The notes beneath the pieces were generated by a model. It searched no databases. It saw only the letters and a list, made by a program, of their open reading frames with translations, and had not been told where the DNA came from. A DNA stretch of 64,000 nucleotides from Gammaproteobacteria bacterium (GTDB lineage: Bacteria > Pseudomonadota > Gammaproteobacteria > Pseudomonadales > JADFDG01): the NCBI GenBank assembly GCA_018262975.1, contig JADFDG010000011.1:46195-110194 (forward strand), read 5' to 3'. Made by a program: the position numbers and the translations under genes. Below are positions 6,905 to 59,613 of the stretch, in pieces. Each line of letters starts with the position of its first letter. Position 1 is the stretch's first letter.

Positions 6905-7759
6905 TCAGCGGCTGCCGTGGCAGGCCGGGTACTCGTTGCGCAGGAAACCGGCCTCCAGGTAGGCGCGGCGGACCAGCCCCTGGCTGCGCAGCAACTCCAG
7001 CCCGCGCTCCAGCGACTGGCGCAGGCGATTGCCGGCGGCGTGGCGGCCGAGCGCGTAGTGGCGGCTGCCGGGGAGCACCAGGCAGGTGCCGTCGACTGGC
7101 ACCAGCTGGATACCGTCGAGGCGAATGTCCGGACTGCCGGCCCCGGGCAACGGCGCCAGCAGGAAGTCGGCGCGACCGGCCCCGACCATGCGCACCATCA
7201 GCGGCCACTCGGCCGCGTCGTACACGTGCCGCAGGGCAAGGCGCTGCAGGGCGAGCCAGTCCGGGCGCCAGTCGCGGCTGGACACCGCGGTGAGTCCCTG
7301 CCAGCGGCCCTGGCGGATCGACGCGTCAAGGTGGCCGGCGCCCGGGGCACGGTAGAACCCGGCGATGAACTGGCCGTCGCTAACCAGCGCCGATGACGCC
7401 TGCAGGCGCGCTGCGTTGTCGTCGATGTCACTGCCCCACACGGAACTGCCGCTGACATCGGCGTGGCCGTCTGCCACCAGGGCGAGCATGCGCCGGTAGG
7501 TGGGTGCGGTGAGGAACTCGACGGTGGCAGGCAGGCCGCCGCGTGCCAGCGCCTGCTGCAGCAGGATCACCTCGACCACGTCGCGCCGTGCCCCCGGCCC
7601 CTGGAAGCGGGTCATCGCCAGTGGCGAACGCTCGCCCAGCAGGCGCTGGTAGTCGGCCAGCACGTCCGGCGTGACGACCACGCGCAGCGACTCCGCCAGT
7701 GCCGCCATGGGCAGGCAGAGGCACAGTGCGAGCAGGGCAGTGAGCACTTTGCGCAGCAT
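6905..7759 (-). CDS. Secreted hypothetical protein (possible periplasmic solute-binding-like fold)
   Basis: 284 aa with a clear signal peptide MLRKVLTALLALCLCLPMAALA. No diagnostic motif recognised. Confidence 0.5.
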   Translation of the reverse strand: MLRKVLTALLALCLCLPMAALAESLRVVVTPDVLADYQRLLGERSPLAMTRFQGPGARRDVVEVILLQQALARGGLPATVEFLTAPTYRRMLALVADGHADVSGSSVWGSDIDDNAARLQASSALVSDGQFIAGFYRAPGAGHLDASIRQGRWQGLTAVSSRDWRPDWLALQRLALRHVYDAAEWPLMVRMVGAGRADFLLAPLPGAGSPDIRLDGIQLVPVDGTCLVLPGSRHYALGRHAAGNRLRQSLERGLELLRSQGLVRRAYLEAGFLRNEYPACHGSR

Positions 7760-7802
7760 CCCCGGACGGTATCCGCCGGCGGTGCTCGCTGCATCCGTAG
7801 GT

Positions 7803-8414
7803 CTACTTACCCTGAACGGGGGACACGAGGCCCTGCAGCAACGGTTCGATTTCCGCCGCGCGCCGGCGCAGATCGGCGCCGGTTGGCCGCGGAAAGCTGC
7901 ACAGGCAACCGATGAAGCCGAACAGCAGCGCCTCGGCGAGCAGGCGTGCGCGGCTGGCGTCGCCGGTCAGCTCGCTGAACAGGGTGACCAGTCGCGCCAG
8001 CCGCGCGCGGTCGATTCGCTCCAGGTGCGTGGCGACGCGCGGATCCGACAGTGCCCAGGCGCGCATGGCCAGTTCCAGGTAATGGCTGCGCGTCCACACG
8101 AACCGCATCATGTGCGCCAGTTGCGCCTGCGGGTCCGGGCCGGCGGCGGCCGCATCGCGGAAGCCCGGTTCGATGCCCTCGGCTTCCCAGCGCTCCACCA
8201 CGGCGTCGATGAAGGCGTCCACGCTGCCGAAGTGGTGGTAGAAGGAGCCGCGCGTCACCTCCAGCCGGGTGGCCAGCCGCGCCGGCGTCACCGCCGTATG
8301 GCCTTCCTTGCCCAGCACGCGCAGGGCCTCGCGGATCCAGTCCTCGCGGCTGCGGTTGTCCTTGCGGGCCGGGGTCTCGGCAGGTGTGGTCACGGGGGCG
8401 TCCGGGGTGGGCAT
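7803..8414 (-). CDS. TetR family transcriptional regulator
   Basis: HTH region REDWIREALRVLGKEGHTAVTPARLATRLEVTRGSFYHHF. ORF track starts at 8516. I prefer the ATG at 8414 (MPTPDAP...) because the longer form would cover the divergent promoter and operators. Confidence 0.8.
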   Translation of the reverse strand: MPTPDAPVTTPAETPARKDNRSREDWIREALRVLGKEGHTAVTPARLATRLEVTRGSFYHHFGSVDAFIDAVVERWEAEGIEPGFRDAAAAGPDPQAQLAHMMRFVWTRSHYLELAMRAWALSDPRVATHLERIDRARLARLVTLFSELTGDASRARLLAEALLFGFIGCLCSFPRPTGADLRRRAAEIEPLLQGLVSPVQGK

Positions 8415-8476
8415 ACAGGGTTGTATGGTAGCGCCGTTATGCCTAGACTCGCCAACAGCATACAGCCCTGTATGGT
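8411..8476. promoter_or_regulatory. Twin palindromic operator candidates in the TetR / acyl-CoA dehydrogenase divergent intergenic region
   Basis: GCATACAGGGTTGTATGGT (8411-8429) and GCATACAGCCCTGTATGGT (8458-8476). Each has CATACAG/CTGTATG-type inverted arms, and the two copies are 47 bp apart. Confidence 0.5.
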
Positions 8477-8514
8477 GCCGACCCGCGGCGCCGGGCACTC
8501 CCGCGAGGACCCCC

Positions 8515-9657
8515 ATGAGCCAGCTCGATTACTTCAGCGATACCCACAAACAACTGCGCGATTCGGTGCGCAAGTTCGTCGAGAAGGAAATCCGCCCCTA
8601 CGTGGCCGAATGGGAAGAGGCGGGCACCTTCCCGCTGGACTTGTACCGCAAGGCCGGCGAAGCGGGCTTCCTCGGCATCGGCTTCCCCGAGGAATACGGC
8701 GGCCTGGGTGAGGATGTGTTCATGGCCGTAACCTTTGCCGAGGAAATCGTGCGCAGCACCTCCGGCGGCCTGGTGGCATCGCTCGGTTCGCTGGGTATCG
8801 GCCTGCCGCCGATTGCCAAGTGGGGTTCGCCGGAAATGAAGGCACGGGTGATCCCCGAAGTGCTGCGCGGCGAGAAGATCTCGGCGCTGGCGATCACCGA
8901 GCCGTCCGGCGGTTCCGACGTTGCCAATATCCGCACCCGCGCCGTCAAGGACGGCGACCACTACGTGGTGAACGGCAGCAAGACCTTCATCACCAGCGGC
9001 GTGCGCGCCGATTACTACACGGTAGCGGTGCGCACCGGCGGTGACGGCTTCGGTGGCGTGTCGCTGCTGTTGATCGAGAAGGGCACCCCGGGCTTCAGCG
9101 TCGGCCGCAACCTCAAGAAGATGGGCTGGTGGGCATCAGATACCGCCGAGCTGTTCTTCGAGGACTGCCGCGTGCCGGTGGCCAACCTGATCGGCCCGGA
9201 GAACGGCGGCTTCTTCTGCATCATGACCAACTTCCAGGCCGAGCGCCTGAACCTGGCCATCATCGCCACCACCACCGCGCAGGTCGCGCTGGACGAGTGC
9301 CTGCGCTACGTGAAGGAGCGTGAAGCGTTCGGCAAGACGCTGTCGAAGTTCCAGGTCATCAAGCACAAGCTCGCCGACATGGCGACCCGCATCGAGGTCA
9401 GCCGCGAGATGAACTACCGCGTCGCCGCGAAGATGGCGGCCGGGCAGAGCGTCATCAAGGAAGTGTCGATGGCCAAGAACTTCGCCACCGATGTTTCCGA
9501 CTTCTGCACCTACGAGGCGACGCAGATCTTCGGCGGCATGGGCTTCATGCGCGAGTCGGTGGTGGAGCGGCTGTACCGCGACAACCGCATCCTGTCCATC
9601 GGCGGCGGCACCCGCGAGATCATGAACGAGGTGATCGCCAAGCAGCTCGGTCTCTGA
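8515..9657 (+). CDS. Acyl-CoA dehydrogenase
   Basis: 380 aa from the ATG at 8515 (MSQLDYFSDTHKQLRDSVRKFVEKEI...). Contains ...ALAITEPSGGSDVA..., ...QIFGGMGFMRE... and C-terminal ...IGGGTREIM.... The ORF-track N-terminal extension is rejected. Confidence 0.9.
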   Translation: MSQLDYFSDTHKQLRDSVRKFVEKEIRPYVAEWEEAGTFPLDLYRKAGEAGFLGIGFPEEYGGLGEDVFMAVTFAEEIVRSTSGGLVASLGSLGIGLPPIAKWGSPEMKARVIPEVLRGEKISALAITEPSGGSDVANIRTRAVKDGDHYVVNGSKTFITSGVRADYYTVAVRTGGDGFGGVSLLLIEKGTPGFSVGRNLKKMGWWASDTAELFFEDCRVPVANLIGPENGGFFCIMTNFQAERLNLAIIATTTAQVALDECLRYVKEREAFGKTLSKFQVIKHKLADMATRIEVSREMNYRVAAKMAAGQSVIKEVSMAKNFATDVSDFCTYEATQIFGGMGFMRESVVERLYRDNRILSIGGGTREIMNEVIAKQLGL

Positions 9658-43610: not shown

Positions 43611-43686
43611 GGGGCTATAGCTCAGCTGGGAGAGCGCAACAATGGCATTGTTGAGGTCATCGGTTCGATCCCGATTAGCTCCACCA
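43611..43686 (+). tRNA. tRNA-Ala (anticodon GGC)
   Basis: Hand-folded cloverleaf: acceptor GGGGCTA/TAGCTCC with the G3:U70 Ala identity pair, D arm GCTC...GAGC, anticodon stem CAACA/TGTTG with loop A-T-GGC-A-T, T arm ATCGG-TTCGATC-CCGAT, encoded CCA. Confidence 0.9.
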
Positions 43687-43859: not shown

Positions 43860-45050
43860 ATGCCGCTATCTGACGCCGCTGTCCGCTCCGCCAAGCCAAA
43901 AGAGAAGCCGCAAAAACTCGCGGACGGTGGGGGGTTGTACCTCCTCATCACGCCTACCGGCAGCAAGTGGTGGCGGCTGAAGTACCGCTTCGACGGCAAG
44001 GAAAAGTCGCTGTCGCTTGGTGTGTATCCGGATACCGGACTCAAGGAAGCGCGCGAGAAAAGGGATGCGGCGCGCAAGCTTCTCGCGGCCGGTGTCGACC
44101 CGGGCGAGAACAGGAAGGCGGCGAGGGCCGCGCGCGCCCTGGAGGAAACAAACAGCTTTGAAGTCGTTGCCCGCGAATGGTTTGCCAAGCAGGAGTCCGT
44201 GTGGGCGGAGTCGCATAGCTCCAAGGTCATTCGGCGCCTGGAAGCCGATGTCTTCCCCTGGATTGGCAAGCGATCCATGGACAGCCTCACGGCGCCAGAC
44301 CTGTTGGCCGTCTTGCGGAAGGTCGAGGGCCGCGGCGCGGTAGACACCGCGCACCGCATCCTTCAGAACTTCGGTCAGGTCTTCCGCTATGCCGTCGCCA
44401 CGGGGCGGGCCACCAGCAATCCAGCGCCCAACCTCCGGGGCGCCTTGAAGGCCATCAAGCAATCCCACTTCGCTTCGCTCACCGACCCCAAGGATGTCGG
44501 CGCCTTGCTTCGGGCCATCGATGGTTACGAGGGGGCATACGCCACCAGGGCTGCCCTCCGGCTGGCGCCGCTGGTATTTGTCCGGCCGGGTGAATTGAGG
44601 GCGGCGGAATGGTCCGAGATCGACTTTGACCAGGCGGAATGGAACATCCCCGCCGCGCGGATGAAGCTCCGCATCCCGCACTTGGTGCCGCTCTCCCGGC
44701 AGGCCCTCGAGATCCTTCGGGACCTTCACAAGGTGACTGGAAAGGATCGCTACCTCTTTCCAAGTTCCCGGACGACGGATCGGCCGATGAGCAACAACGC
44801 AATCCTCGCCGCCCTGCGGCGCATGGGGTACGAGCAGGGCGAGATGACTGGGCACGGCTTTCGGGCCATGGCCCGGACGATCCTTGATGAGGTGCTCCAG
44901 GTACGACCTGACTACATCGAGCACCAGCTCGCGCACGCCGTCCGTGATCCCAACGGCCGGGCGTACAACCGGACCGCGCACAAGGCTGAACGGGCCAAGA
45001 TGATGCAGCGGTGGGCCGACTACCTGGATGGGCTGAGGGCTGATCGGTAA
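43860..45050 (+). CDS. int: Tyrosine-type site-specific integrase (P4/CP4-57-like, DUF4102 N-terminus)
   Basis: 396 aa. N-terminus LSDAAVRSAKPKEKPQKLADGGGLYLLITPTGSKWWRLKYRFDGKEKSLSLGVYP. Catalytic region ...HGFRAMARTIL...IEHQLAH...AYNR.... Adjacent to the tRNA. Confidence 0.92.
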   Translation: MPLSDAAVRSAKPKEKPQKLADGGGLYLLITPTGSKWWRLKYRFDGKEKSLSLGVYPDTGLKEAREKRDAARKLLAAGVDPGENRKAARAARALEETNSFEVVAREWFAKQESVWAESHSSKVIRRLEADVFPWIGKRSMDSLTAPDLLAVLRKVEGRGAVDTAHRILQNFGQVFRYAVATGRATSNPAPNLRGALKAIKQSHFASLTDPKDVGALLRAIDGYEGAYATRAALRLAPLVFVRPGELRAAEWSEIDFDQAEWNIPAARMKLRIPHLVPLSRQALEILRDLHKVTGKDRYLFPSSRTTDRPMSNNAILAALRRMGYEQGEMTGHGFRAMARTILDEVLQVRPDYIEHQLAHAVRDPNGRAYNRTAHKAERAKMMQRWADYLDGLRADR

Positions 45051-48037: not shown

Positions 48038-48121
48038 GGCCTTGCGTCTGGCTGGCTATTAATTGCCTGCAGATAGCGATGGGGCATCCTTGTTCGCCAG
48101 TGCGAACATGTGCGCAGATGT

Positions 48122-49453
48122 TCAGCGTTCGTCGCTGAGCCCCAGTTCTTCCCACATCCACCCGAAGTCATACGCAGGCATGCCGCGCTGCTGAGCGCCG
48201 TGTGTGGTGCTGCGCTCGAGGTCCTTGAGCCAGGCGATGGTGCGTTCGCGGCCGACCTTGGTCTTGATCGCCTGGGCCGGCGTTTTGTTGCCGAGCGCCG
48301 GGATCGGCATGCGCATGATTTCGCGGTAGTGGCGATCGAGGATGGCGAGGATCATGCCGTGCTGCTCATCCGGGGACGGCATCGCTGCCGGGGCAGCACC
48401 GCCACCGGGCACCGGCACGGCGTTGATGTCCATTTCCTCGTAGCTGGTCAGGGCAGGGCCGACCTTGTCACCCAAGGCCTGCTGCAGCATCAGCAAGCCG
48501 CGCTCCATGCGCTGGCGAGAGTTCGTCGTGAACACCAGGTGCTTGCGCTCGAGCACGGCATCGCCGAGCAGCGTTCCGGCCGGGCTCACCGATTTCGACT
48601 TGCGCCGTGACTTCGGCTTTTCTTCCGGTGCTTCACCGCTGGCGAGCCAGACCCAGCGCAAGTGATTGTCGGATGCTGACTCCCATCCGGGCAGGGTGTT
48701 CATGACGGCAGCGATTTCGTCGGCACGCGCCAGCAATGGCAGCCGGCTCTTGCTCAGGAGGAGTTCGTCGCCATCGCGATTGACGACCTGCGGGCGCGGC
48801 GCGAACTTGCCGGCGTACAGCCAGGCGATCCAGGCGGTGGTGCTCAGCGAGGGCATCGGGTCGGTACTGCTGTCTGCCTTGCACAGGCGGGCATAGGCCT
48901 TGAGCAGGCTCCTGGTTTCATCCGGGCGCACGGGCAGCACACCGCCGGCCAGCACATACTCCTCGTGCACGCGCAGTACCCGGGCGGAAATCACGTCCCA
49001 GCGCGACAGGTGCTGGCTGCCGGTTTTCTCGTGGACGAACACCGGCTCCTCGGTCTTGCCCTTGGTCACGTCCAGCGGGCGCAGGGTGAGGCCGATACCC
49101 GGCCGGACATCGGTGACCTCGTGCAGGCGAAGGCGGCTGTCGATGAGCGCCTCCAGGTACTTGCGGGCGTAGCCGTTTTCCCGCCAGCCGGCGCGCTGGA
49201 GGTAGTCGGCCGCCATGCAGAGGCCGTCGGCTCGCCGCCGGGTAGCGAAGTCCTCGAAGACGGTGGCGATGAATTCACCGGATTGGTCGCCGACGATGTC
49301 GCTGATCTCGGCAGGGTCAACGTCCAGGGCCTCGGCGGCATTTTCCACATGCTCCCTGATCACCTCCCCGAAGAGCGACTTCCACTCGGGCCGGGTGGCG
49401 TACTTCTGCATGTTGCTGATCAGGGAACCGGTCTTGCTCATGGCGGGGTGCAA
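48122..49453 (-). CDS. Hypothetical protein (443 aa), unknown function
   Basis: Long ORF with good coding composition. C-terminal ...IPALGNKTPAQAIKTKVGRERTIAWLKDLE...YDFGWMWEELGL resembles the LGGxTP...G...v..lL..lE tail seen in DUF2384/Xre-MbcA-ParS-type domains. That similarity is weak and by eye only. Confidence 0.5.
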   Translation of the reverse strand: MHPAMSKTGSLISNMQKYATRPEWKSLFGEVIREHVENAAEALDVDPAEISDIVGDQSGEFIATVFEDFATRRRADGLCMAADYLQRAGWRENGYARKYLEALIDSRLRLHEVTDVRPGIGLTLRPLDVTKGKTEEPVFVHEKTGSQHLSRWDVISARVLRVHEEYVLAGGVLPVRPDETRSLLKAYARLCKADSSTDPMPSLSTTAWIAWLYAGKFAPRPQVVNRDGDELLLSKSRLPLLARADEIAAVMNTLPGWESASDNHLRWVWLASGEAPEEKPKSRRKSKSVSPAGTLLGDAVLERKHLVFTTNSRQRMERGLLMLQQALGDKVGPALTSYEEMDINAVPVPGGGAAPAAMPSPDEQHGMILAILDRHYREIMRMPIPALGNKTPAQAIKTKVGRERTIAWLKDLERSTTHGAQQRGMPAYDFGWMWEELGLSDER

Positions 49454-49641
49454 GGGAAGTAGGCGGTGACGCGTATTTCACCAGAATCCGAGGGGGGAGG
49501 GTCAGATTTACCCCGGCGCCTGGGGGCAGTTCCGTGTCGGCGCCGGGGAGGGGTCAACGGTGGGGCGGAAGGAACTGATCCGCCGGCGTAGGTTTTCACG
49601 TCAGTCCGGATGCTGTGAGAAATCACCATCCGGAGTTCGAC

Positions 49642-50130
49642 ATGATTTGTCCTCGGTCCATTCAGCCGGGATGCCGGCATTGCCTCGCTGACTATGGTCG
49701 TCGCCCTGACGCAGGTTTGCCCGCGCTGCGCGCCAGGCTGGGCTATCCACCGTTAAGCCTCCTGCAGGCGCAGGCCCACATCGAGGCTTTCGTGGATCAG
49801 GTTGTGGATAGCAGGCGATTGGCCGTGAAGATACGTGAGCGAGTGACCGGCTATGGCCCCGGTTTGACCCGTCTTGGCCGACAGCTGATTCCCACGCTGC
49901 TGATGCTTGGCTACTTCGACTCCAGTCTGGCTTACCCGCCGAAGGTCTACGCCTTCCTCGAGGCGTGCTGGAGTCTCGAGGAGTTCTGCGGCGTCAGTTA
50001 CTCGGCGTTGGCAGCTGATCAGCTATGGTCCATGCATACCCATGCGGACGAGTTGAACGCTGTAGTCGACAAGATCCGGATGTTAGCTCGCCAAGGGTGG
50101 TTTCCTGGTGTGACGCATCAACCTTGGTAG
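49642..50130 (+). CDS. Hypothetical protein (162 aa)
   Basis: ATG at 49642 with GGAG 8 nt upstream (ORF-track GTG at 49615). No recognisable motif. Confidence 0.3.
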   Translation: MICPRSIQPGCRHCLADYGRRPDAGLPALRARLGYPPLSLLQAQAHIEAFVDQVVDSRRLAVKIRERVTGYGPGLTRLGRQLIPTLLMLGYFDSSLAYPPKVYAFLEACWSLEEFCGVSYSALAADQLWSMHTHADELNAVVDKIRMLARQGWFPGVTHQPW

Positions 50131-50152: not shown

Positions 50153-52015
50153 TCACCAGCCCGGATACTTCCGCCAGATCCGATCATTCAGTTCCTGATT
50201 GCTGCTGTACTCCCCGATATCCCAATCCCTGAAGGCATAAAGGTCCCCTGCGAGCTTCGCGATCACCTCGCGAAGCTCCAGGGGTTCCAGCCATTTCTGC
50301 GGAATCGATTTCACGCCGTAGAGAGCGCCCAGCAGGTTGCCGGTGATCGATCCGGTCGAGTCGGAATCGCCGTCGTGGTTCACCGCGAGCAAGACGCCCT
50401 CACGAAAGGTGCGGGCGACGAGGGCGCAGTAGACCGAGATGCCGAGTGCTTCCTCGGCGACCCAGCCTTGGCCGAGTTCGCGGATGGCCTGTTCCGGCGG
50501 CATCTTCATGTCCGCTAGGATCTCGGCACCTTTGAGCGAGTGGATGGCTTCCTGAGAATCTTCTTGTGGCTCAAGGCAGGCAATGGCCACGCGCAATGCT
50601 TCGCGGATGGACGCGCCATCGGTGATGGCCTGGATCATCACGGCCAGCGCACCGCCGGTGAGGTGGCCGGTCGGGTGTCCGTGCGTGATTGCGGCCAGTT
50701 CCATGCCGACCTTGAACGTCTGGTGCGCATCCCAGCGCTCGCGTGCTCCGTACAGTCCGACGGGGGCAACTCGCATCACGCCGCCGCACCCCTTGCTGTC
50801 GTTATCGGCAGTGATCTCGCCGGGTCCGCTGCGCAACGCGCTCAGGCAGGTGTTGCCCGGCGCGCGGCGACTGTGCAATTCGGGATGGAAGAACAGCCAG
50901 CCGTAACGTTCGCTGGGAACCTTGGGCCGGAGTGGCGGCGTTTCCTTCTGGGTTTCCAGCCAGCGTTGATAGGCGTGTGCTGTGACGCCTGGGTAAGTCG
51001 TCAGGCCCTTGAAGCAGCCCCTTACATGGGCGCGCAGCAGTCCCTCGGCAGTGAACAGCGTCATCTGCGTGTCGTCGGTGATCTTGCCGATACCGCCATA
51101 GGCAGGTGCGTAGTCGGTGAGGCCCTTGGGGCCGAAGCGGCACAGAATTTCGTCCCGCTTCATGAACTCGATGGGCGCGCCCAATGCATCGCCCACGGCA
51201 CCGCCGAGCAGGCAGCCGAGGAAGCGGTTCTGGACCGTGCGCGCCTGCTGGCGCTTGCGCGTCCAGGTCGGGATTGCCGCCGCAGGTGGGGGCAGATCCT
51301 CCGGCTCATCCGCCACAGGCTCGTCGGGGTCAGCGGAATACGCATGGTGCGCACCCAGCTCCATGGCGACCCTGGCCGCCGGCCGGGGCGCGAGGGTGCG
51401 ATGCCGGCGCCAGTCCGGCAGCACGGTGCCGTCGTGGCTGATGCCGATGCCCTTTTCCCAGTAGGAGAGATAAGCCTCCCCGGCTTCCGAGGCGTAGACG
51501 TTGCCCATGCCGGCCGAGCAGTCGAGGGCGTACTCCCAGTTGTTCTCCCGCATGCAGACGGCGCCCTTGTACGGGCGTTGTGCGAGGCCGCAAAGGTATT
51601 CACAGCTCTTCCCGTCCAGGGGCCGGTAGACGGCGACCCGGAGGCGCCCGTCCTCCCGGCGGGTCATGGCGGCGATCAGCTCGCCGTCCCGTTGGATGGT
51701 GACGAGCTTGCCCTCCAGGTCGACTGGACCGATCTCCAGCCACCAGGACTCGCCCTCAGCCGTGACGGTCTCGCGTGGGTCGTCGGGGCTCAGCAGTTGG
51801 GCAAGGCGGTCCATGGCCGGCTCGAGGTCCCGCCAGCCGGTGGCCAGATCCCGGCTGCGCTCCTGAAGGCCCTGAAGGAGCAGGGCGAAGGGGAGGTGGC
51901 CGTCGGAGGTCAGGGCTTCCTGTACCTGGGCGGCCGGCACGGGGTAGGGGATGTCGGGCAGGCCGTACTGTTGGATGAGGTCGATCTTGAGGTGCAGGTC
52001 AGCAAGGCTGGGCAT
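50153..52015 (-). CDS. ADP-ribosylglycohydrolase family domain fused to an unknown N-terminal domain of about 300 aa
   Basis: 620 aa from the ATG at 52015 (MPSLADLHLKIDL...). C-terminal half: ...FLGCLLGGAVGDALGAPIEF..., ...ITDDTQMTLFTAEGLL..., ...AITHGHPTGHL..., ...GDSDSTGSITGNLLGALYG.... No clear SD, so the start is uncertain. The ORF track extends to 52258 through Pro/Arg-rich sequence. Confidence 0.75.
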   Translation of the reverse strand: MPSLADLHLKIDLIQQYGLPDIPYPVPAAQVQEALTSDGHLPFALLLQGLQERSRDLATGWRDLEPAMDRLAQLLSPDDPRETVTAEGESWWLEIGPVDLEGKLVTIQRDGELIAAMTRREDGRLRVAVYRPLDGKSCEYLCGLAQRPYKGAVCMRENNWEYALDCSAGMGNVYASEAGEAYLSYWEKGIGISHDGTVLPDWRRHRTLAPRPAARVAMELGAHHAYSADPDEPVADEPEDLPPPAAAIPTWTRKRQQARTVQNRFLGCLLGGAVGDALGAPIEFMKRDEILCRFGPKGLTDYAPAYGGIGKITDDTQMTLFTAEGLLRAHVRGCFKGLTTYPGVTAHAYQRWLETQKETPPLRPKVPSERYGWLFFHPELHSRRAPGNTCLSALRSGPGEITADNDSKGCGGVMRVAPVGLYGARERWDAHQTFKVGMELAAITHGHPTGHLTGGALAVMIQAITDGASIREALRVAIACLEPQEDSQEAIHSLKGAEILADMKMPPEQAIRELGQGWVAEEALGISVYCALVARTFREGVLLAVNHDGDSDSTGSITGNLLGALYGVKSIPQKWLEPLELREVIAKLAGDLYAFRDWDIGEYSSNQELNDRIWRKYPGW

Positions 52016-52029
52016 GAAGTGAGTCGGTC

Positions 52030-52071
52030 CTGTCGCGGGTGATGGCCTATTGCGCCACCGCCCCGCGACAG
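52030..52071. promoter_or_regulatory. Perfect 10-bp inverted repeat just upstream of the ARH-fusion gene
   Basis: CTGTCGCGGG (52030-52039) / CCCGCGACAG (52062-52071) with a 22-nt spacer, 15 nt from the proposed ATG at 52015. Confidence 0.3.
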
Positions 52072-52272
52072 TCGTTGTCGCAGAGCAAGACCATTCGCAT
52101 CGATGTAGAGGATGTCGAAACGGCGGGTGGCCCAAAGCATGCCGGGCGTAACCGGGACGTCGAGTATCTGGAGAAAATCTGGCAGGCTCACATGGAGGGC
52201 TGTACCAAACATCGCCTGAAGTGATATCTACTATCCGTGCAACATCAACCGTGCTCACAGGGCCATAGACCC

Positions 52273-52539
52273 ATGCGTAAAGTTGTAAATTTCATATGCG
52301 CAGTCCTCATGGCCGGCGTCGGAATCTACCTCGCGATTTCAATTGGCATACTTGTTTTCATATTCACTGGGCAACTACAGGTCGGCAATGACTTGGGCGA
52401 CGGCAATGTCGTTCCGTCAGTATCAACTCTGTTATTTTTTCAGGCGTCTTGTATTTTGTTCATGGCGATCTTGGTTCTGATACGAGCCAAGGTTGGGAAA
52501 CAATATGATTTCAAATTCCTACGGCCGAGAGGCATCTAG
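52273..52539 (+). CDS. Small two-TM membrane protein
   Basis: 88 aa from the ATG at 52273 (MRKVVNFICAVLMAGVGIYLAISIGILVFIF ... LLFFQASCILFMAILVLI). AT-rich codon usage like the surrounding island. Confidence 0.4.
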   Translation: MRKVVNFICAVLMAGVGIYLAISIGILVFIFTGQLQVGNDLGDGNVVPSVSTLLFFQASCILFMAILVLIRAKVGKQYDFKFLRPRGI

Positions 52540-52642
52540 CAATGTCTCTCAAGGATGTTGCTCTTTTCAACTGCGTAGGCTACGCAGCGCTACTGTTCAG
52601 GCCACGAAGCGCCAGCGGCAAAGTTCCTACAGCGGATCTTTC

Positions 52643-53461
52643 CTAGATCATCCCGGCAGCTAACAATTGACGCTCGATTTCTAGCCAGGCCTTCTTGTTG
52701 TATTTCGGCGCAAGAGCACCAGTCCAGAGCCTGTGGAAATCATTGTGGTTCTTTCTCTTTTGACAATCGCAATGCTTGGCTCCGCCTCTACGAAGCTCGC
52801 ACTGCTCGTCGTGCTGTTCTTCTACTCTCTTACGCGCATTCGATACTTGTTTGCCTCTATCCTGGGCTAGTTCGCTCTGTATTCTCTGATCTTCTAGAAA
52901 AAGGTCTGGCACGCCTGCATGAAAATCATCAGGGTCAGAAGCTGGCGCGTCATGTCCATTAGCGATGTCCGTCTCGTCTGGTTCAGGGTAGAGGGATTCC
53001 AAGACATCCGGTGGCACGGGGAGAAGACTCTTCCCTATGCTTTTTATCGTCGAAATGGGCACAACTTCCAGAAACGTTTCAGTATTCGAGCGGTGAACAT
53101 TATTCTTTGCGTCGTGCCATTCCGATGTACGAGAAACGACAGCGTTGGCCATCCCATCTGATTTGTTCGGATAGATTCGCAACAGGCAATCCGTTCTGCA
53201 GGGCGCGGCATCGCTGGTCGCGTGATTATCGAGCCAATAACTAGGTCCAAGATCGAATGTGGCCTCAATGGAAGTGACATCAAATCTTACGAGTTTCATC
53301 GCAAAGGCTGCTACGCAGTCAGGTACGTCAGACGAAAACGTTCCAGAATTAGAGCGATCAACGTTATGGGCAACTATATCAATCCCGCAAGTCGTAACCA
53401 CGAAATCTTTGTGAAAAGTGCCATCTTCGCCGTCATACCGCTCTCTAACGTACATTTCCAT
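52643..53461 (-). CDS. Hypothetical protein (272 aa) immediately downstream of brxL
   Basis: ATG at 53461 with GGGGTG upstream. Same strand as and 60 nt after the brxL stop. Acidic middle and basic Cys/His-containing C-terminus (...GGAKHCDCQKRKNHNDFH...). No recognised domain. Confidence 0.5.
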   Translation of the reverse strand: MEMYVRERYDGEDGTFHKDFVVTTCGIDIVAHNVDRSNSGTFSSDVPDCVAAFAMKLVRFDVTSIEATFDLGPSYWLDNHATSDAAPCRTDCLLRIYPNKSDGMANAVVSRTSEWHDAKNNVHRSNTETFLEVVPISTIKSIGKSLLPVPPDVLESLYPEPDETDIANGHDAPASDPDDFHAGVPDLFLEDQRIQSELAQDRGKQVSNARKRVEEQHDEQCELRRGGAKHCDCQKRKNHNDFHRLWTGALAPKYNKKAWLEIERQLLAAGMI

Positions 53462-53521: not shown

Positions 53522-55561
53522 TTAATCAACCCCCAGCGCCTTGAACACAGCATCCACCGGATCAGCATAAAAGCTGGTCTGGAATTTTGTGAACAACTCC
53601 GCCGGAATCGTCGGAATATCCTTGGCGCTTGTCATCGGCATTGCCACGCGCTTTCCGCCCGCATCAAAAGCCACCTGCAGGCACTCGGCAATACTCTCGA
53701 CAGGCGTAACGCTGCCTCCCAAGCTCATGTCCCCCAGAACCACCAGCTGCGCTTGCGCAGGTCGCCCCATCAGGCCTGATGCGAACGCCACCAGGCTAGG
53801 TAGCGCCATGTGAGTGAGAGGGCCGGTGTTTTGCAGTTCAACCACGTGCAAGTGAAAGTCGTGATCTAAGACCTTGGCCGAAGCACTGATCCGCGCGGCA
53901 TTCGCCTTGAAGTAATCAAATGCGATCTTCACCTGCTCCTTGGCAGCGCTGGAGTTCCACAAGCCTGAGGTGGCCAATTTTCCAGTGCCCTTCGTGACCT
54001 GTAGCTCTATCCGGTACACCCCGGGCATTCCCTTGCTGCTCAGGCCGATCGTGTGGATAAAGCCTGGCTTGCCGGGGCCCTCAGGAATCAGACCGCCACC
54101 GCCTTGTTCCTTCACGGTCACAAAGCGTTCTTCCAGTGTCTGGTTGTCGATGTAGCTGAAGTGCACATCGTAAAACTCCATCCCGCCGATTTTCTTCAGC
54201 TGCTCCTTCACGCGGCGGCGCACCTGCAGTGCGTACTCCAGGCACAGGCGGACGTCTTCCTTGGTGAACTGGTCATGAGGGAAGAGCAGCTTGAGAAGGC
54301 CGGAAACCGTCTTGCGAACCGCAATGACATCCCGCTGATTCAGGTTGTTTCCCAACTTGAAGTGCTTGTCGATTGCATCGGCAAAACTGCGCTTGCGCAT
54401 TTCCCGAAAGAACTCAGCCAGGTAGTCCACGATCAGGCCGTACCTGTCGGTGAAATACTCAGGCCGCATCTTCGGGATCTCCCATCCTGGGATGTAGGCA
54501 TGAAAGCGGTCGAAGAACGCGGAATCGATCATTGCCTCAGGGAACGGCGCCAGCAGGTGGCTGGTTTTGACCAGGGACTCCACACTCTGGTTGATGTTGC
54601 CAACGAACACCATCGAGGCTGAGGCTTCCATCTGTTCACGGCCACGGGCAAAAGAACCCGAAGCCATGAAATCCTTCATAATCTGGACGCCGTCCTTTTC
54701 CTTGAAATTGATGCCGGCAACTTCATCAAATGCCACAACGTCCCACAGGCCAACCAGGCCAATGCGACGGCTGCTCATGTTGTAGAAAAGGTTGGCTACC
54801 GTCGTCTGGCCGCCGGAAACCAGAATGCTGTTCGGTGAGCATTCCTTGTAGATGTGGCTCTTGCCGGTTCCGCGTGGGCCCAACTCACAAACGTTGTAGT
54901 TGTTCTCTACGAAGGGAATCATGCGGGCGAGCAGATGCCACTGCACGGATTCATCCAGCGTAGATGGCTCCATTCCAATCGAGCGAATAAGTGCTTCCCG
55001 CCACTGCACAGTCGTTAATGCCGCGCGGCCGGCGAACAACTCCGGCATGTTCATGTTGGGCATTTGAATCGGCTTTAGAAGCGTCACGCCGAAGGGAGAT
55101 CCGGACTGACCTTCTTCGTGGTAGTAACTCAGCGTTGCGATTACCCATATGCCACCAACAAGCAGCTTCTCGTATTCCTTGACGATGCTGGCCGAAATCT
55201 CGGCGTCCTTGATCCCGAGGTTGCTGAAGGCCGCCTCATAGCGGTCCTTCTTTTCATTCAGGCGAACTGTGACGCGGTCGATAACCTTGTAAGTTCCACG
55301 CTCACGCACCAGTGATTTGACCTTCTCCGCCTCATCGGGGCGAACATAGTTGTCTGCCAGAACGTTCTTGACGTTCTTTAGTCCCTTTTCAATGATCTCT
55401 GGATCATCGGATGCGCAATACATGCCAAGCAAGTACTCAAGAACATACACCGGCACATTGGCGCCTTCCTTGATCAACTTGGTCAGGTCTTTGCGCACCA
55501 CGCGGCCGGCGAAGTGCTCGTTCAGCAGCTGATCGAGATCCTTGTCCGTATCAATAGTCAT
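53522..55561 (-). CDS. brxL: BREX system Lon protease-like protein BrxL
   Basis: 679 aa. N-terminus ...LNEHFAGRVVRKDLTKLIKEGANVPVYVLEYLLGMYCASDDPE... is highly characteristic. Central P-loop ...LGPRGTGKSH.... Lon-protease-like C-terminus. Follows pglZ. Confidence 0.9.
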   Translation of the reverse strand: MTIDTDKDLDQLLNEHFAGRVVRKDLTKLIKEGANVPVYVLEYLLGMYCASDDPEIIEKGLKNVKNVLADNYVRPDEAEKVKSLVRERGTYKVIDRVTVRLNEKKDRYEAAFSNLGIKDAEISASIVKEYEKLLVGGIWVIATLSYYHEEGQSGSPFGVTLLKPIQMPNMNMPELFAGRAALTTVQWREALIRSIGMEPSTLDESVQWHLLARMIPFVENNYNVCELGPRGTGKSHIYKECSPNSILVSGGQTTVANLFYNMSSRRIGLVGLWDVVAFDEVAGINFKEKDGVQIMKDFMASGSFARGREQMEASASMVFVGNINQSVESLVKTSHLLAPFPEAMIDSAFFDRFHAYIPGWEIPKMRPEYFTDRYGLIVDYLAEFFREMRKRSFADAIDKHFKLGNNLNQRDVIAVRKTVSGLLKLLFPHDQFTKEDVRLCLEYALQVRRRVKEQLKKIGGMEFYDVHFSYIDNQTLEERFVTVKEQGGGGLIPEGPGKPGFIHTIGLSSKGMPGVYRIELQVTKGTGKLATSGLWNSSAAKEQVKIAFDYFKANAARISASAKVLDHDFHLHVVELQNTGPLTHMALPSLVAFASGLMGRPAQAQLVVLGDMSLGGSVTPVESIAECLQVAFDAGGKRVAMPMTSAKDIPTIPAELFTKFQTSFYADPVDAVFKALGVD

Positions 55562-55576: not shown

Positions 55577-58204
55577 TCAAAAGAAATCGTCAGTGAAGGC
55601 CAGGTCAATCGTGACGCGATAGCGCTCCAGCTCGGTATTCATGTCTTTGTCGCGAATGATCATGAAGTAGTCCTTCTGGCGGTCAAAGTCTTTGCCAATC
55701 AGGGATAGCCGAATCTGCTTCATGCGCTCGGTCATTGAGTCAGTCGCGCAATCGAAGGTAACGACTTCTTCGCTTGAAACGGCCTTGTTGTCTTCATAGA
55801 TCGCCACGGCAACGGTAATTGGCAGTACTAGCTCGCTGACCGATTCCGTCTGGATAAGATCAAACCGCTGGATATGGGTAACCATCTTCAGCGATGACTT
55901 TGGCGAGATCACACCAACCTTTCTCTTTGTTCGCTTTTCGGCTTTCTCACCCCTCAGTTGGTTCACGGTAATAACCGGAACCACGATCTCCTGAGGCATC
56001 GCGCCGCCATGAACAAAACGGGCGCCACCAACAAAGTGGAAGCGGTTGGCCCCCTTGGGGATCCAGAACTGGGTATCCGAGCTGGTTCCGGCGGTCAGCT
56101 TGGTTGATCCGCGCCAAACATCCTTGGCGGCAGGCAGGCTGTGAGCGATCACATAGCGCTTCTTGCTTTTGATAGTGTTCTCTGGCTTCTCCACCAGGCT
56201 CGTGCGATCCGCTGCTTCCATTTTGCTTTGCTGAAACAAAAAGCCATGGTCAGCGGTAATCAATACCGTGCTTGTATTGAAGTGCATAAGTATCTTTTTT
56301 GTCAGTTCATTCAGCTCTTCAATGGCGTATTCGACGTGCTGAAAAGTATCTGACTCGGATTGGCCGCCACTATCACTTCGATCATCAATCACGTTGTGAT
56401 AGACATAGACCAACTGCTGGTCCTTGAGTGCTTCACGGCCAGCGTCGCGTGACCACTCCTTGATCTGATCGGCAGTGACTGCCATGCCATGGTACTGGGC
56501 GAGGATGGCATTCCGCGCTTGGGTTCCTGCGGTCGACTGGCTATCTACGAATACGTTGTCACCGCCGTCCGCGCGGTATTCGAGTGTCTTGTGGGGCAGC
56601 AGGGAGGCCATGCCCAATGTGGTGTAGCTAGGCAGGACACCCAGTTGACTCGTAAGCGTTGCTTCGCTGTAGCGCTTCTGGTTGATGCGCTCGCAGAGCT
56701 CAACAGCCGCTTCATACCGGAACGCATCGCTGATGATCACGACAACACGCTTGTTGCGGTGGCTATCTAGTTGAGGGCGAACAAAGTGCTCGTAAAAATC
56801 CTGCTGGCTCGGTATTCCCGACAAAGCCCAATGATCCAGCCGATGTTCAGACTCGATACGGTCACTCCAGCAGCGGCCTAGTTGGTCCAGGTACCAGGAG
56901 GCGTAACACTGTTCAACCGCGTCATCGAGTTTCTTGAGCAACTCCACATGCGCAAGCCGGGAAGCCGCAAAGTAATGCCGGTAAGACGTGTCAAATCGGT
57001 AGAGATCGCTTTGGTACGCCTTGTACAACGACTCCGTGCTGGAGAAGTGGAATCCCTCCACATGGTCGTGTCGTAGCGTGAATAGATCTATCGCTGCCGA
57101 CAGTGCCGAGTAGAGAAGGCGGTACTTGCGCCGTATTTCGTCGTCCTTATGACGTGAAGCCCAGTAGTTGTCGAGCCGGTCTGAAATGATTCGCGTAAAT
57201 TGAGACAGCTCTCTGGCTGAAGCGTCAGGGATGAACTTTGTAAGGTCTGAAACAATTTGTCGTTCAACGGCCTGAAAGGTTGCCGAATTGGCCAATGTCT
57301 CGACAGGGATATCTCGGATTCTCTCAGGAATACGCAGTGCATTACTGACCCAGTCGGATACGGCGTCATAGGACTTGTAGTGACGGGAGCTGTCACGCCA
57401 ACGCGATAGCAGCGAGCGGGACGTTGCGCGCGCATTGGCTGATGGCATTACGGTGGATGTAGCCCAGCCCGGGACATCGCCGATATTTTCGCAAAATGCT
57501 GTTGCGAGCAGGCGGATCAGGAAATGGCTGAAGTTGAATGGCTTCTCGCCATTGACCTCCTCGAGACTTGCCGGGTAGCCCACCTCTTCCCGGAGTGACT
57601 GCAGCAGGGTGGGCATCAGGCCGTATTTGTACAACTCATCTATGGCGACCGGGTTCGCATCGAGACCGTGTTCACCTTGAACAGCGGCATCGGCCAGTGT
57701 GCAGAGGAGGGTGGAAATATCCGAAGCGCTTGCACCGATGACGACAGCAATCATGGCCAGATCCAGCGCCTCGGGACTGTCCGTTGGCTGGATCAGGCGC
57801 TTCAGACTGTTTGTCCTGGCTTTACTGCTAAGGAATCGTTCACGTTTGGCCAGATGCGCGCGCAGGCTTTGCTGTTGCAATCCAAAGTCATTGAAGATCA
57901 GCGACATGCGATCGGCGTAGAAGCTGCGCGAATAGAGCTTGATGTCCAGAAGCCAGTCATCATTAGCTTCTGGTTCGGCGATTGGAAAATACAGCAGGTA
58001 CTTGCCTTCCTTGTCCTCGCATTCCAGCTTTAGCTTGAGGCCGAATGTGGACTGACCATGCATGTTCAATATATTCACGCCAGGCAGATCAAGCTGGTTC
58101 AGTTCGTCGGCAAAACTCTGCTCCGCGTCGTACCAGAATACGATGCGATGTCCTTCCACAAAGAAGGCACGCTTGAGGCCTTGGGTCAGTTGTTGGGTGT
58201 CCAT
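55577..58204 (-). CDS. pglZ: BREX alkaline-phosphatase-superfamily protein PglZ
   Basis: 875 aa from the ATG at 58204 (MDTQQLTQGLKRAFFVEGHRIVFWYD...). PglZ core ...VVVIISDAFRYEAAVEL...LGVLPSYTTLGMASLLPH...TADHGF.... The start overlaps the upstream stop (TAATG). Confidence 0.9.
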   Translation of the reverse strand: MDTQQLTQGLKRAFFVEGHRIVFWYDAEQSFADELNQLDLPGVNILNMHGQSTFGLKLKLECEDKEGKYLLYFPIAEPEANDDWLLDIKLYSRSFYADRMSLIFNDFGLQQQSLRAHLAKRERFLSSKARTNSLKRLIQPTDSPEALDLAMIAVVIGASASDISTLLCTLADAAVQGEHGLDANPVAIDELYKYGLMPTLLQSLREEVGYPASLEEVNGEKPFNFSHFLIRLLATAFCENIGDVPGWATSTVMPSANARATSRSLLSRWRDSSRHYKSYDAVSDWVSNALRIPERIRDIPVETLANSATFQAVERQIVSDLTKFIPDASARELSQFTRIISDRLDNYWASRHKDDEIRRKYRLLYSALSAAIDLFTLRHDHVEGFHFSSTESLYKAYQSDLYRFDTSYRHYFAASRLAHVELLKKLDDAVEQCYASWYLDQLGRCWSDRIESEHRLDHWALSGIPSQQDFYEHFVRPQLDSHRNKRVVVIISDAFRYEAAVELCERINQKRYSEATLTSQLGVLPSYTTLGMASLLPHKTLEYRADGGDNVFVDSQSTAGTQARNAILAQYHGMAVTADQIKEWSRDAGREALKDQQLVYVYHNVIDDRSDSGGQSESDTFQHVEYAIEELNELTKKILMHFNTSTVLITADHGFLFQQSKMEAADRTSLVEKPENTIKSKKRYVIAHSLPAAKDVWRGSTKLTAGTSSDTQFWIPKGANRFHFVGGARFVHGGAMPQEIVVPVITVNQLRGEKAEKRTKRKVGVISPKSSLKMVTHIQRFDLIQTESVSELVLPITVAVAIYEDNKAVSSEEVVTFDCATDSMTERMKQIRLSLIGKDFDRQKDYFMIIRDKDMNTELERYRVTIDLAFTDDFF

Positions 58205-59613
58205 TAACTCGGCGCCTGATCCTGTCGAATGGTGATGGCTTTCCAGCCATATTTTTCTTTTGCTTTGTCGTATGACATCACCGCAATGCCTGCGACGATG
58301 GTGCCTGTTGTGATGCCTTCGCACATTCCGGGTGGAACGAACAGGTCATTGTTTACGAATCCAAATCCCCTATCAGTGACCCGTATTTCACCCCTGAAGG
58401 AATTTATGTCAGGCGAATCAAAGGGTGCGATTGATTCGGCAGAGGAGACATCCTTCGAATCACTGCCCATATCACAGAGAATCCTGATGTATGTGCCCGG
58501 CGACGGAATTCTGCGATTCGGGAAAACACCTTTCCGGACAGAGAACGTTTGGCTTCTGTCTACGTATACGAAGGCGCCTTTGCCTGATTCGTGAACAGAC
58601 TGAACCACGCCAGAAAAATAGGTCGGGTCTGCCATGGCGACTTCATTGGCACCGACTGCCAACCCGGCGATGTACGCGTCGAGATCTTTGGTGTTCAGGG
58701 ATCCATCAAACCAGGCAGAGGACGTCAGGCCTACGACCTTGTCCTTCAATTGCCAGCCGTTCTGGTTATAGATGTCACAGAGTTTGATCAGCACTTTGGA
58801 CGCGTATTCATGGTCTCCGGTTTCGGCAAGCAGCTCTGCCATCTGTACCAGACCAGGAATACTGAACTTTGGATCGTGGGCGCAAGTTAGTCCGAATGCA
58901 GTCAAGGCAATTGCTTTCTTGGGATCATCCAGATAGGTCGATGCGAGGCCGAACCACGCCCAGGACTCGCCACCTTTCCTCTTCAATACCGAAGAATAGG
59001 CTTCACGAGCTTTATCAATTCGCCCTGCGGCCTTGAAGATCCTTGCCATGTCATAGTCGAGCCAAACCTTTCCCTGCGGGGAATCCTTTGCACATTCCTG
59101 GGCATGCTTCAGGAGCGCGATAACCCTTGCAGGATCAAGTTGACTGGTGCCGACCTGCTGGAGGTAGTTGGCTGCCACCATGTGCGCCAGTCGAGTCACT
59201 AAGCTCGGGGATTCACCCTTTTCGGTCTTGAAGGGCTCGTAGTCATTCGAGCTGAATATTGAGCGGCCGCTGCGCAAGATAAACAGGCAGATCGGCTCGC
59301 AGAACTTTCCTATACCCCGGAAGAGGTTCCATAGTCTGAAATCAATGAGTTCGTTGGGAAGCGTTATCTGCAGTGTCGATATGCGAGAAGCCCAAAAATC
59401 AATCTGCTTCTTCTCAAGGGTTGTCGGGGCAATGTTTTCGCGCGCTGTGATTGGCTCAATAAGCTGCTTTAAAGCGGAATAAATCACCCAGAATAGCGAA
59501 GTCTGGAGATATGTGTTTCCGGGATCTTGTTGAAGAGCCGGGAAGCCCTTCTGCCAGGCGGCCTCAAAGTCGCCTGTCGCTTTGATGTCCCTTATTTCGC
59601 TGATGATGCTCAT
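58204..59613 (-). CDS. Helical-repeat (TPR-like) protein with two C-terminal cold-shock/OB-like modules; BREX-embedded, unknown function
   Basis: 469 aa. The N-terminal 320 aa or so is helical with TPR-like stretches (...MARIFKAAGRIDKAREAYSSVLK...). aa 333-378 read GVVQSVHESGKGAFVYVDRSQTFSVRKGVF. aa 406-462 read FRGEIRVTDRGFGFVNNDLFVPPGM...G, a CSD-like GFGF signature. ATGA and TAATG overlaps link it to its neighbours. Confidence 0.6.
   Translation of the reverse strand: MSIISEIRDIKATGDFEAAWQKGFPALQQDPGNTYLQTSLFWVIYSALKQLIEPITARENIAPTTLEKKQIDFWASRISTLQITLPNELIDFRLWNLFRGIGKFCEPICLFILRSGRSIFSSNDYEPFKTEKGESPSLVTRLAHMVAANYLQQVGTSQLDPARVIALLKHAQECAKDSPQGKVWLDYDMARIFKAAGRIDKAREAYSSVLKRKGGESWAWFGLASTYLDDPKKAIALTAFGLTCAHDPKFSIPGLVQMAELLAETGDHEYASKVLIKLCDIYNQNGWQLKDKVVGLTSSAWFDGSLNTKDLDAYIAGLAVGANEVAMADPTYFSGVVQSVHESGKGAFVYVDRSQTFSVRKGVFPNRRIPSPGTYIRILCDMGSDSKDVSSAESIAPFDSPDINSFRGEIRVTDRGFGFVNNDLFVPPGMCEGITTGTIVAGIAVMSYDKAKEKYGWKAITIRQDQAPS

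Follow-up and report, generated by a model that had tools for sequence, protein, structure and literature searches.

We analysed a 64,000-nucleotide (nt) stretch of DNA from a member of the Gammaproteobacteria (positions 46,195 to 110,194 of contig JADFDG010000011.1; hereafter the window), in which a minus-strand gene at 50153-52015 encodes a 620-amino-acid (aa) protein that joins an N-terminal domain without named relatives (N-domain) to an ADP-ribosylglycohydrolase (ARH) of the DraG type. The gene is accessory and linked to a mobile island. In the reading that we favour, at a probability of roughly 45%, its product is a solo de-ADP-ribosylating enzyme of a defence or mobile island, which would reverse the marks of foreign transferases and would represent a reduced form of the predicted ARG-centric systems.

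In the proposed mechanism, the C-terminal ARH domain would hydrolyse ADP-ribose from host macromolecules that a foreign ADP-ribosyltransferase, e.g. of the phage Alt/Mod type, has modified. The likeliest substrate would be arginine-linked protein ADP-ribose, a preference suggested by the proximity of the domain to DraG and Tri1. The N-domain, carried on a flexible acidic linker, would deliver the enzyme to its substrate by recognizing the ADP-ribosylated target or the ADP-ribose moiety itself.

Gene boundaries and the catalytic domain

The gene consists of the following elements.

50153..52015, minus strand: whole gene, stop codon included; 620-aa protein of N-domain, linker, and ADP-ribosylglycohydrolase, with full-length homologues at 54-88% identity
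51332..52015, minus strand: N-domain (approximately aa 1-228); conserved family without named relative or structural match
51230..51331, minus strand: linker (approximately aa 229-262); acidic and proline-rich, varying in length and sequence across homologues (alignment columns ~250-300)
50153..51229, minus strand: ARH/DraG-type domain (approximately aa 263-620); metal-site motifs intact
52030..52071, minus strand: perfect inverted repeat with arms of 10 bp and a spacer of 22 nt, located 15-56 nt ahead of the start codon

The minus-strand open reading frame (ORF) that stops at 50153 encodes 620 aa when translated from the ATG at 52015; upstream, the same frame stays open to a GTG at 52258, giving 701 aa. 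Since 29 aligned homologues begin at this ATG or no more than ~20 residues from it, we assign the gene to 50153-52015 rather than to the 701-aa version. A first-pass annotation of the window had run the gene to 52071, a stretch that takes in the inverted repeat and not coding sequence. It had also described an unknown 300-aa N-terminal domain. This part is indeed unrecognized by family libraries, but the alignment of 30 sequences resolves it into a conserved N-domain of ~225 aa and a variable acidic linker of ~35-40 aa. In the AlphaFold model of the N-domain, the predicted local distance difference test (pLDDT) falls to 51 at the final residues, i.e. at the linker side.

The three ARH/DraG signature blocks previously quoted for the C-terminal half are all present, and the Pfam family PF03747 matches aa 267-573 (E 1.3e-73; 248.6 bits against a cut-off of 26.2) over profile positions 1-286 of 287. 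The blocks GDALGxPxE, TDDTQ, and DGDSDSTG are invariant or nearly so in 30 sequences and align with the corresponding blocks of MJ1187 and Lmo0067. Each of the residues D276, E283, T313-D314-D315-T316, and D548/D550/S551/D552/S553/T554 is either invariant among the 30 homologues or conserved in at least 90% of them. In the solved relatives, these acidic and Thr/Ser blocks form the di-metal site. By sequence, the closest of these are MJ1187 (1.2e-19), Lmo0067, DraG (2.8e-17), and Tri1 (6dre, 1.1e-14), with ARH1 (~1e-9) and ARH3 (5e-8) more distant. DraG, Tri1, and ARH1 are arginine-specific. The protein scores far below the equivalog cut-offs of both DraG (TIGR02662, 92.9 bits versus 337.05) and Tri1 (NF041672, 86.2 bits versus 490).

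In the homologue search, 7936 of 8000 scored candidates match; among the 120 matches listed, most span the whole protein at 54-65% identity and one reaches 88%. According to precomputed Pfam assignments, some full-length relatives carry extra C-terminal domains, namely an McrBC-type domain (PF10117) in P0089 and DSP-phosphatase domains (PF22784, PF22785, PF05706) in P0108 and P0116.

The N-domain family and the company of its relatives

The N-domain forms a separate, small family: searched alone against 1.84 billion representatives, it retrieves only 232 clusters at E ≤ 1e-3, many of which are stand-alone proteins of ~230 aa. Seven of 23 scanned members contain a second domain, the other 16 being without any family. 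The partners in these seven are ARH, NUDIX (twice, on either side), a DSP-type phosphatase, a UDG-superfamily domain, a helix-hairpin-helix (HhH), and TY-Chap2. In Halorhodospira abdelmalekii (L046), the window protein occurs in split form: a separate 232-aa N-domain gene (8187-8885, minus strand) converges on an ARH-only gene (6989-8146, plus strand) across a gap of 40 nt.

The N-domain has no match in Pfam, NCBIfam, PHROGs, or PADLOC, and 43 of its members give no convincing family match in Pfam; in particular, none of the 43 matches TY-Chap1, 2, or 3 (PF22551, PF22552, PF22553) at E ≤ 1, and PF22551 and PF22552 have no match anywhere in the source genome. An AlphaFold2 model built from 43 sequences is very confident (pLDDT 95.2, predicted TM-score (pTM) 0.91) and presents a mixed alpha/beta domain, whose centre (residues 57-150) comprises a helix, five strands, and a helix and reaches a pLDDT of 92.4 when folded by itself. 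Foldseek, the check that the first-pass annotation had called for on the N-terminal part, retrieves no meaningful relative of this model from the PDB (best E 0.40 for the whole N-domain, 0.29 for the centre), in line with the earlier remark that the sequence matched nothing recognizable. Likewise, the viral structures of BFVD yield no meaningful match (best E 0.33), and the sequence profile of the domain finds no PDB chain at E ≤ 10. By its model, the N-domain is thus a confidently predicted structure without detectable relative, a missing match being no proof of a new fold. A predicted complex of ARH domain and N-domain scored 0.00 in two runs without controls, which is evidence in neither direction.

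The domains fused to it all have nucleotides as their targets, in most cases portions of an ADP-ribose adduct, so that recognition of ADP-ribose or of such adducts is the most attractive bold reading of the N-domain. We put forward tentatively, and as something that on balance is probably not the case, that the domain is a new reader fold for ADP-ribose or ADP-ribosylated macromolecules, comparable in role to macro, WWE, and PBZ domains, and plugged onto enzymes that cut different bonds of the adduct. ARH would then cleave the ribosyl linkage, NUDIX the pyrophosphate, the DSP-phosphatase a phosphate, and the UDG-like domain a base-sugar bond. A sensor role of the N-domain for soluble derivatives fits the same data.

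When each species is represented by a single genome, relatives of the window protein are encoded in 589 stretches or more, of which the best 80 loci were examined. The N-domain is present in 34 of these 80; the others encode ARH-only proteins of ~365-400 aa, with an identity of 50-69% over the part in common. From this patchiness it follows that the N-domain was gained or lost repeatedly. Neighbourhoods were counted in the 28 loci that contain the start of the N-domain. In 10 of them, a divergent WYL regulator gene lies 138-171 nt upstream, and an eleventh has an HD gene in between. Beyond the regulator follow BrxF, PsyrT/PsyrA, a type I methylase, or Fic.

In eight loci (L001, L002, L003, L008, L009, L010, L020, L059), the ~160 nt of intergenic DNA between the WYL and ARH genes are almost identical across named genera that include Pseudomonas, Pseudoduganella, Thiobacillus, Comamonas, and Halioglobus, and the genes beyond the regulator differ, with BrxF in some and PsyrTA in others. 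Such near-identity across genera implies recent horizontal spread, and the sequences suggest that the WYL-ARH pair is a recently spreading two-gene module. The same spread, together with the position of the window gene in an integrase island, would also suit a counter-defence cargo, by which the island, while it is being transferred or afterwards, neutralizes DarT- or CmdT-like ADP-ribosylating defences of the recipient; the parts of the literature available to us report orphan antitoxin-like enzymes that phages carry against DarTG1. We nevertheless consider this quite improbable, as the N-domain has no match in 50,697 phage records, none of 53 matching plasmid records covers 80% or more of the protein, and the neighbours in most loci are defence rather than transfer genes.

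Phosphatases are a further recurrent company. A gene for an HD_4 phosphatase overlaps the start of the ARH gene in 4 of the 28 loci, and calcineurin-like phosphatases (Metallophos) as well as WYL regulators are also found near ARH-only relatives. These adjoining HD and calcineurin-type enzymes, the ligand-sensing nature of WYL regulators (PMC9503650), and the fusion of the N-domain to two kinds of domain that target nucleotide diphosphate or sugar phosphate groups (NUDIX and DSP-phosphatase) would fit a processor of soluble ADP-ribose-derived signals or toxic by-products, in which an N-domain sensor gates the hydrolase and thereby tunes or switches off an NAD-based defence. This alternative is unlikely in our estimate: neither beside the window gene nor in the examined loci is there a TIR, SIR2, or cyclase gene, and Iyer et al argue, as their own inference, that ARG domains prefer macromolecular adducts (PMC9503650).

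A Pfam scan took in 78 of the 114 neighbour ORFs from 29 N-domain loci, the 36 omitted ones coming mostly from clusters already scanned. These 78 include integrases, serine recombinases, ParB/RepB, TraG, large helicase-nuclease proteins, and RtcB, with housekeeping genes at the island edges. At the sensitivity of Pfam, which applies to all statements on neighbouring transferases here, no ADP-ribosyltransferase, DarT, or RES family was found among the window neighbours, the cluster representatives, or the 78 neighbour ORFs, nor does any scanned neighbour match DarT/DUF4433. The earlier observation that the window gene has no visible ADP-ribosyltransferase partner is therefore borne out and extends to its relatives. 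The first-pass annotation had named widespread housekeeping homologues with the same N-domain in non-mobile contexts as speaking against its proposal. Full-length relatives sit in mobile or defence islands, in the company of integrases, serine recombinases, ParB, TraG, PsyrTA, BrxF, type I methylase, and Fic.

The island and the genes beside the ARH gene

The window gene lies in an island with a tRNA gene, an integrase gene, and BREX genes on the strand of the ARH gene. The island further holds a YagK/YfjJ-type gene and several orphans.

43611-43686: tRNA-Ala, in the island
43860-45050: P4-type integrase, in the island
52237-52539, plus strand: 100-aa hydrophobic ORF, between BrxL and the ARH gene
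52643-53461, minus strand: 272-aa ORF without family, between BrxL and the ARH gene
53522-55561, minus strand: BrxL (BREX), same strand as the ARH gene
55577-58324, minus strand: PglZ (BREX), same strand as the ARH gene

G+C amounts to 0.64-0.71 in the core before 44 kb, to 0.51-0.55 in most of the island, and to 0.64-0.65 across 48-52 kb, which indicates that the ARH-bearing segment has another history than the adjoining BREX genes. The gene was not found in any of seven same-genus genomes; the full-length form is present only in the source genome among 61 genomes of relatives, and the family profile of the N-domain matches in one of 400 other genomes sampled from the phylum. This rarity, the absence from all seven congeners, the island location with a G+C that differs from the core genome, and the score below the DraG equivalog cut-off (92.9 versus 337) make it hardly credible that we are looking at an ordinary housekeeping hydrolase, either a DraG-like regulator or an enzyme of ADP-ribose metabolite turnover, that lies in the island by chance. 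Such an origin would draw on the frequency of ARH enzymes (PF03747 is present in 7 of 14 control genomes) and on stand-alone N-domain genes, some of which lie among metabolic genes.

A WYL-domain gene is present at C2:120741-120941 (minus strand), ~22 kb from the ARH gene and ~10.5 kb beyond the window end, on the BREX strand and upstream of the BREX genes. It probably heads BREX and may be a BrxR-type regulator of the system with BrxL and PglZ.

The source genome contains a second ARH system on contig C7, where a gene for a 393-aa WYL-WCX regulator lies directly upstream of one for a 627-aa fusion of inositol monophosphatase and ADP-ribosylglycohydrolase (L118, 937-2118, plus strand; L082, 589-2472, plus strand). 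Judged by sequence, this pair is a textbook regulator plus phosphatase-ARG arrangement of the kind predicted in PMC9503650.

Two orphans on the other side of the ARH gene, at 48122-49453 and 49642-50130, had been proposed in the first-pass annotation as candidates for the missing transferase. The former encodes a 443-aa protein and is a real gene with 32 database relatives, matched in 16 of 401 genomes of the class (a count that includes one unpublished genome). In all four family members tested, the toxin-binding C-terminal domain of Xre/MbcA/ParS antitoxins is matched weakly, with scores below the threshold, and this is the only family signal of the protein. The gene occurs three times in the source genome at 87-91% identity, namely in the window (48120-49519, contig C2), at C10:57275-58675, and at C26:20490-21596. 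The repeated DNA spans this gene alone (window 48120-49519), the C26 copy being ~270 nt shorter internally, and neither of the other two copies has an ARH gene nearby. The second orphan is a 171-aa ORF (49615-50130, plus strand) that converges on the ARH gene, which is not an operon layout. Among 399 other genomes of the class, none contains a match to it, and its single paralogue (40% identity) lies at C10:54805-55287, away from any ARH gene. Between this paralogue and the C10 copy of the 443-aa gene, ~2 kb apart, there is a gene for a 436-aa ATPase-like protein, and both orphans could be parts of a single type of mobile module.

The proposal of these orphans as the transferase is not supported. 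By tblastn, the 443-aa, 171-aa, 272-aa, and 100-aa proteins, the YagK and 553-aa proteins, BrxL, and PglZ each have zero matches in the 80 related loci, and on this ground of conservation the neighbours were rejected as partners of the ARH gene. In addition, the 443-aa gene is repeated independently and its product carries a weak antitoxin-type motif, and the paralogue of the 171-aa ORF stands without ARH. Pfam assigns none of the window neighbours to a transferase family, and there is no sign of a cryptic transferase fold, no fold search of these neighbours having been made.

In relatives, a different gene takes the downstream position. It encodes a 169-aa Cys-rich protein (CxxC...CxC), begins 17 nt after the ARH stop codon in 7 of the 28 loci and in 4 more that are cut by contig ends (together L001, L003, L004, L006, L008, L010, L012, L016, L022, L023, and L030; e.g. 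8895-9404 in L010), and is followed by a DUF3223/HamC-like gene in L001, L006, and L022. The protein has no Pfam or PADLOC family and is absent from the window. The spacing corresponds to the operon layout typical of toxin-antitoxin pairs, and an ARH-type antitoxin, DarG3, is known from a DarT system according to the part of that report available to us (PMC13069673). On these grounds, the ARH gene could be the antitoxin of a pair whose toxin is a window neighbour (48122-49453 or 49615-50130) or, in relatives, the 169-aa protein. This is very improbable: the window lacks a homologue of the 169-aa gene, its own neighbours lack homologues in the related loci, the 443-aa gene is repeated without ARH, the 171-aa ORF is convergent instead of operonic, and none of the three proteins (443, 171, or 169 aa) matches a transferase family.

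Metagenome contigs add to this picture. In two sequencing runs, the ARH gene is covered by contigs that are ~90-95% alike and that reach upstream as far as 53500, among them one of 1017 nt on 52055-53067 and others that span 51943-52084. One of the two runs has contigs that switch to unlike sequence precisely where the ARH gene stops (50153), a hint that the downstream neighbours are not partners. In a third run, a contig bridges 49858-50190, which means that the window arrangement also exists elsewhere. No run contains half or more of the sampled words of the stretch, and parts without contig cover are not evidence of absence. Contigs from an RNA library are identical to the 272-aa ORF over 52745-53030 at a depth of 3; such low-depth contigs, on this ORF and on the N-domain part, are no demonstration of transcription.

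The perfect 10-bp inverted repeat reported upstream of the gene (52030-52039 / 52062-52071) is present as described. Dinucleotide shuffles of the 221-nt upstream stretch produce such a repeat in 0.8% of 2000 trials, and the whole window holds 29 of them (0.45 per kb), which gives an empirical expectation of ~0.1 for the upstream stretch. Folded as RNA, a 91-nt stretch forms a stable hairpin that includes the repeat (-37.1 kcal/mol, z -2.75; 3 of 200 shuffles are as stable). The repeat is thus mildly unusual and a putative operator or 5'-leader hairpin. The DNA upstream of the window gene gives no alignment with the intergenic WYL-ARH region that is conserved in relatives, and the interval from the start codon to 52260 showed no sigma-70-like site. 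Within the 3' part of the ARH coding sequence, at 50252-50278, lies another perfect inverted repeat (11 nt, with a spacer of 5 nt), which is probably coincidental.

Comparison with known systems

The closest match to the window gene in the literature are the ARG-centric systems, which were predicted from comparative genomics alone (Iyer, Burroughs, Anantharaman, Aravind 2022, Viruses 14:1977, section 3.8, PMC9503650). They are defined by an ARH/ARG enzyme without a coupled transferase, contain WYL or Nudix regulators in more than 42% and phosphatases (rhodanese-phosphatase, calcineurin-like, HD, and HAD kinds) in more than 55% of cases, and include as accessories peptide-binding chaperones (vWA, SseB, TY-Chap1-3), ARPP, and restriction-type nucleases (PMC9503650). 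The role proposed for them is the removal of ADP-ribose that viral enzymes have put on host macromolecules (PMC9503650). Our literature search found no experimental test of these systems, the sole treatment found being this computational one.

The window gene shares with them an ARH gene without a coupled ADP-ribosyltransferase or sirtuin, a patchy distribution, an island context, and swapped modules; its relatives also share the WYL regulators, the HD, calcineurin-like, and DSP phosphatases, and the NUDIX and TY-Chap2 domains. In contrast to these systems, the N-domain matches none of the accessory families named in the paper that are present in Pfam (TY-Chap1, 2, 3). Compared by description only, ARPP (a beta-meander with an inserted barrel and a conserved cysteine) does not fit it either. 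The combination of N-domain and ARG is set apart from the paper by its text and may be drawn unnamed in its Figure 7; the text supplements contain no list of host ARG architectures. Thus, the window gene would be a variant of a so-far-only-predicted kind, which lacks the frequent regulator and phosphatase and carries an unlisted N-domain.

Tri1, the immunity protein to the type VI secretion system (T6SS) toxin Tre1 (PDB 6dre/6drh), likewise pairs an ARH fold of the DraG kind with an additional N-terminal portion. It protects by removing arginine ADP-ribose. Unlike the short extension of Tri1, the N-terminal part of the window protein is an independent, mobile domain of 225 aa, and no Tre1-like or secretion genes lie near the window gene. 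A second parallel is a bacterial PARG that acts against the RNA ADP-ribosylating toxin RhsP2 (Nucleic Acids Research 2025, PMC11833690). From what we could consult of this study, it provides stand-alone protection against a non-cognate foreign transferase, but has a macrodomain rather than an ARH fold and no equivalent of the N-domain.

Both parallels raise the question whether the window gene encodes an orphan immunity protein against interbacterial ADP-ribosylating toxins (T6SS/Rhs-type effectors), whose N-domain may bind and block the toxin as the Tri1 extension does. Tri1 is indeed among the closest solved relatives (6dre, 1.1e-14; 86 bits with the NCBIfam model), stand-alone PARG offers a precedent as far as the partly available report goes (PMC11833690), and no cognate transferase lies beside the gene. 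Yet the Tri1 score stays far under the cut-off of 490, no secretion-system or Rhs genes are seen by the gene or its relatives, and the contexts are phage-defence genes and WYL regulators, which together render this explanation improbable.

DraG (ADP-ribosyl-[dinitrogen reductase] hydrolase) belongs to the same superfamily and is among the best solved relatives, but is a single-domain protein of ~300 aa whose equivalog cut-off the window protein does not reach; no DraT/nitrogenase context was seen near the window gene, with no genome-wide search having been made. DarG3, the ARH-like antitoxin of the DarHTG defence system (Nucleic Acids Research 2026, PMC13069673), also places an ARH-type hydrolase in a phage-defence setting. 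In the portion of that paper at hand, its partners are a DarT toxin and a helicase, in contrast to the window gene and its relatives, which have no DarT-type family beside them.

Of the three options offered by the first-pass annotation, i.e. an antitoxin, an immunity component, or a reverser of phage-imposed ADP-ribosylation, the reversal of ADP-ribosylation imposed from outside fits the comparative evidence and PMC9503650, and the idea of a partner among the neighbours finds no support. A reverser is consistent with a gene that is accessory (not found in 7 of 7 congeners), resides in a tRNA-Ala/integrase island by BREX, and has relatives that are likewise without transferase. A host-side role fits as well, because the N-domain has no match in the phage records.

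Several points weigh against this reading. The window copy is solo, without adjacent regulator, phosphatase, or named chaperone. In G020 and on a Roseomonas plasmid, N-domain genes that stand alone are surrounded by ordinary metabolic genes. The role given to the N-domain is purely our inference, and only Y24, Q51, R109, and W186 are polar among its nearly invariant columns. The NUDIX and phosphatase fusions fit a processing of soluble ADP-ribose derivatives equally well. Three relatives (L018, L025, L056) look truncated or frame-shifted, from which it follows that the gene is often dispensable. Finally, activity, substrate, and protection are predictions for every member of the family.

Phages such as T4 ADP-ribosylate host proteins. 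For the reversal of this modification by bacteria, the proposal that we found is the computational one of 2022 (PMC9503650). The window gene would be a minimal, one-protein form of the proposed system and thus easy to clone and test. Its N-domain recurs on four kinds of enzymes that act on nucleotides or ADP-ribose. Should it not be a reader, a clean correction would still result, in that the neighbouring orphans are not partners. If it does read ADP-ribose marks, it would constitute a new domain class in ADP-ribosylation biology and a probe for such marks; the window protein would then be a self-targeting eraser and the first tractable single-gene handle on defence by reversal of phage-imposed modification.

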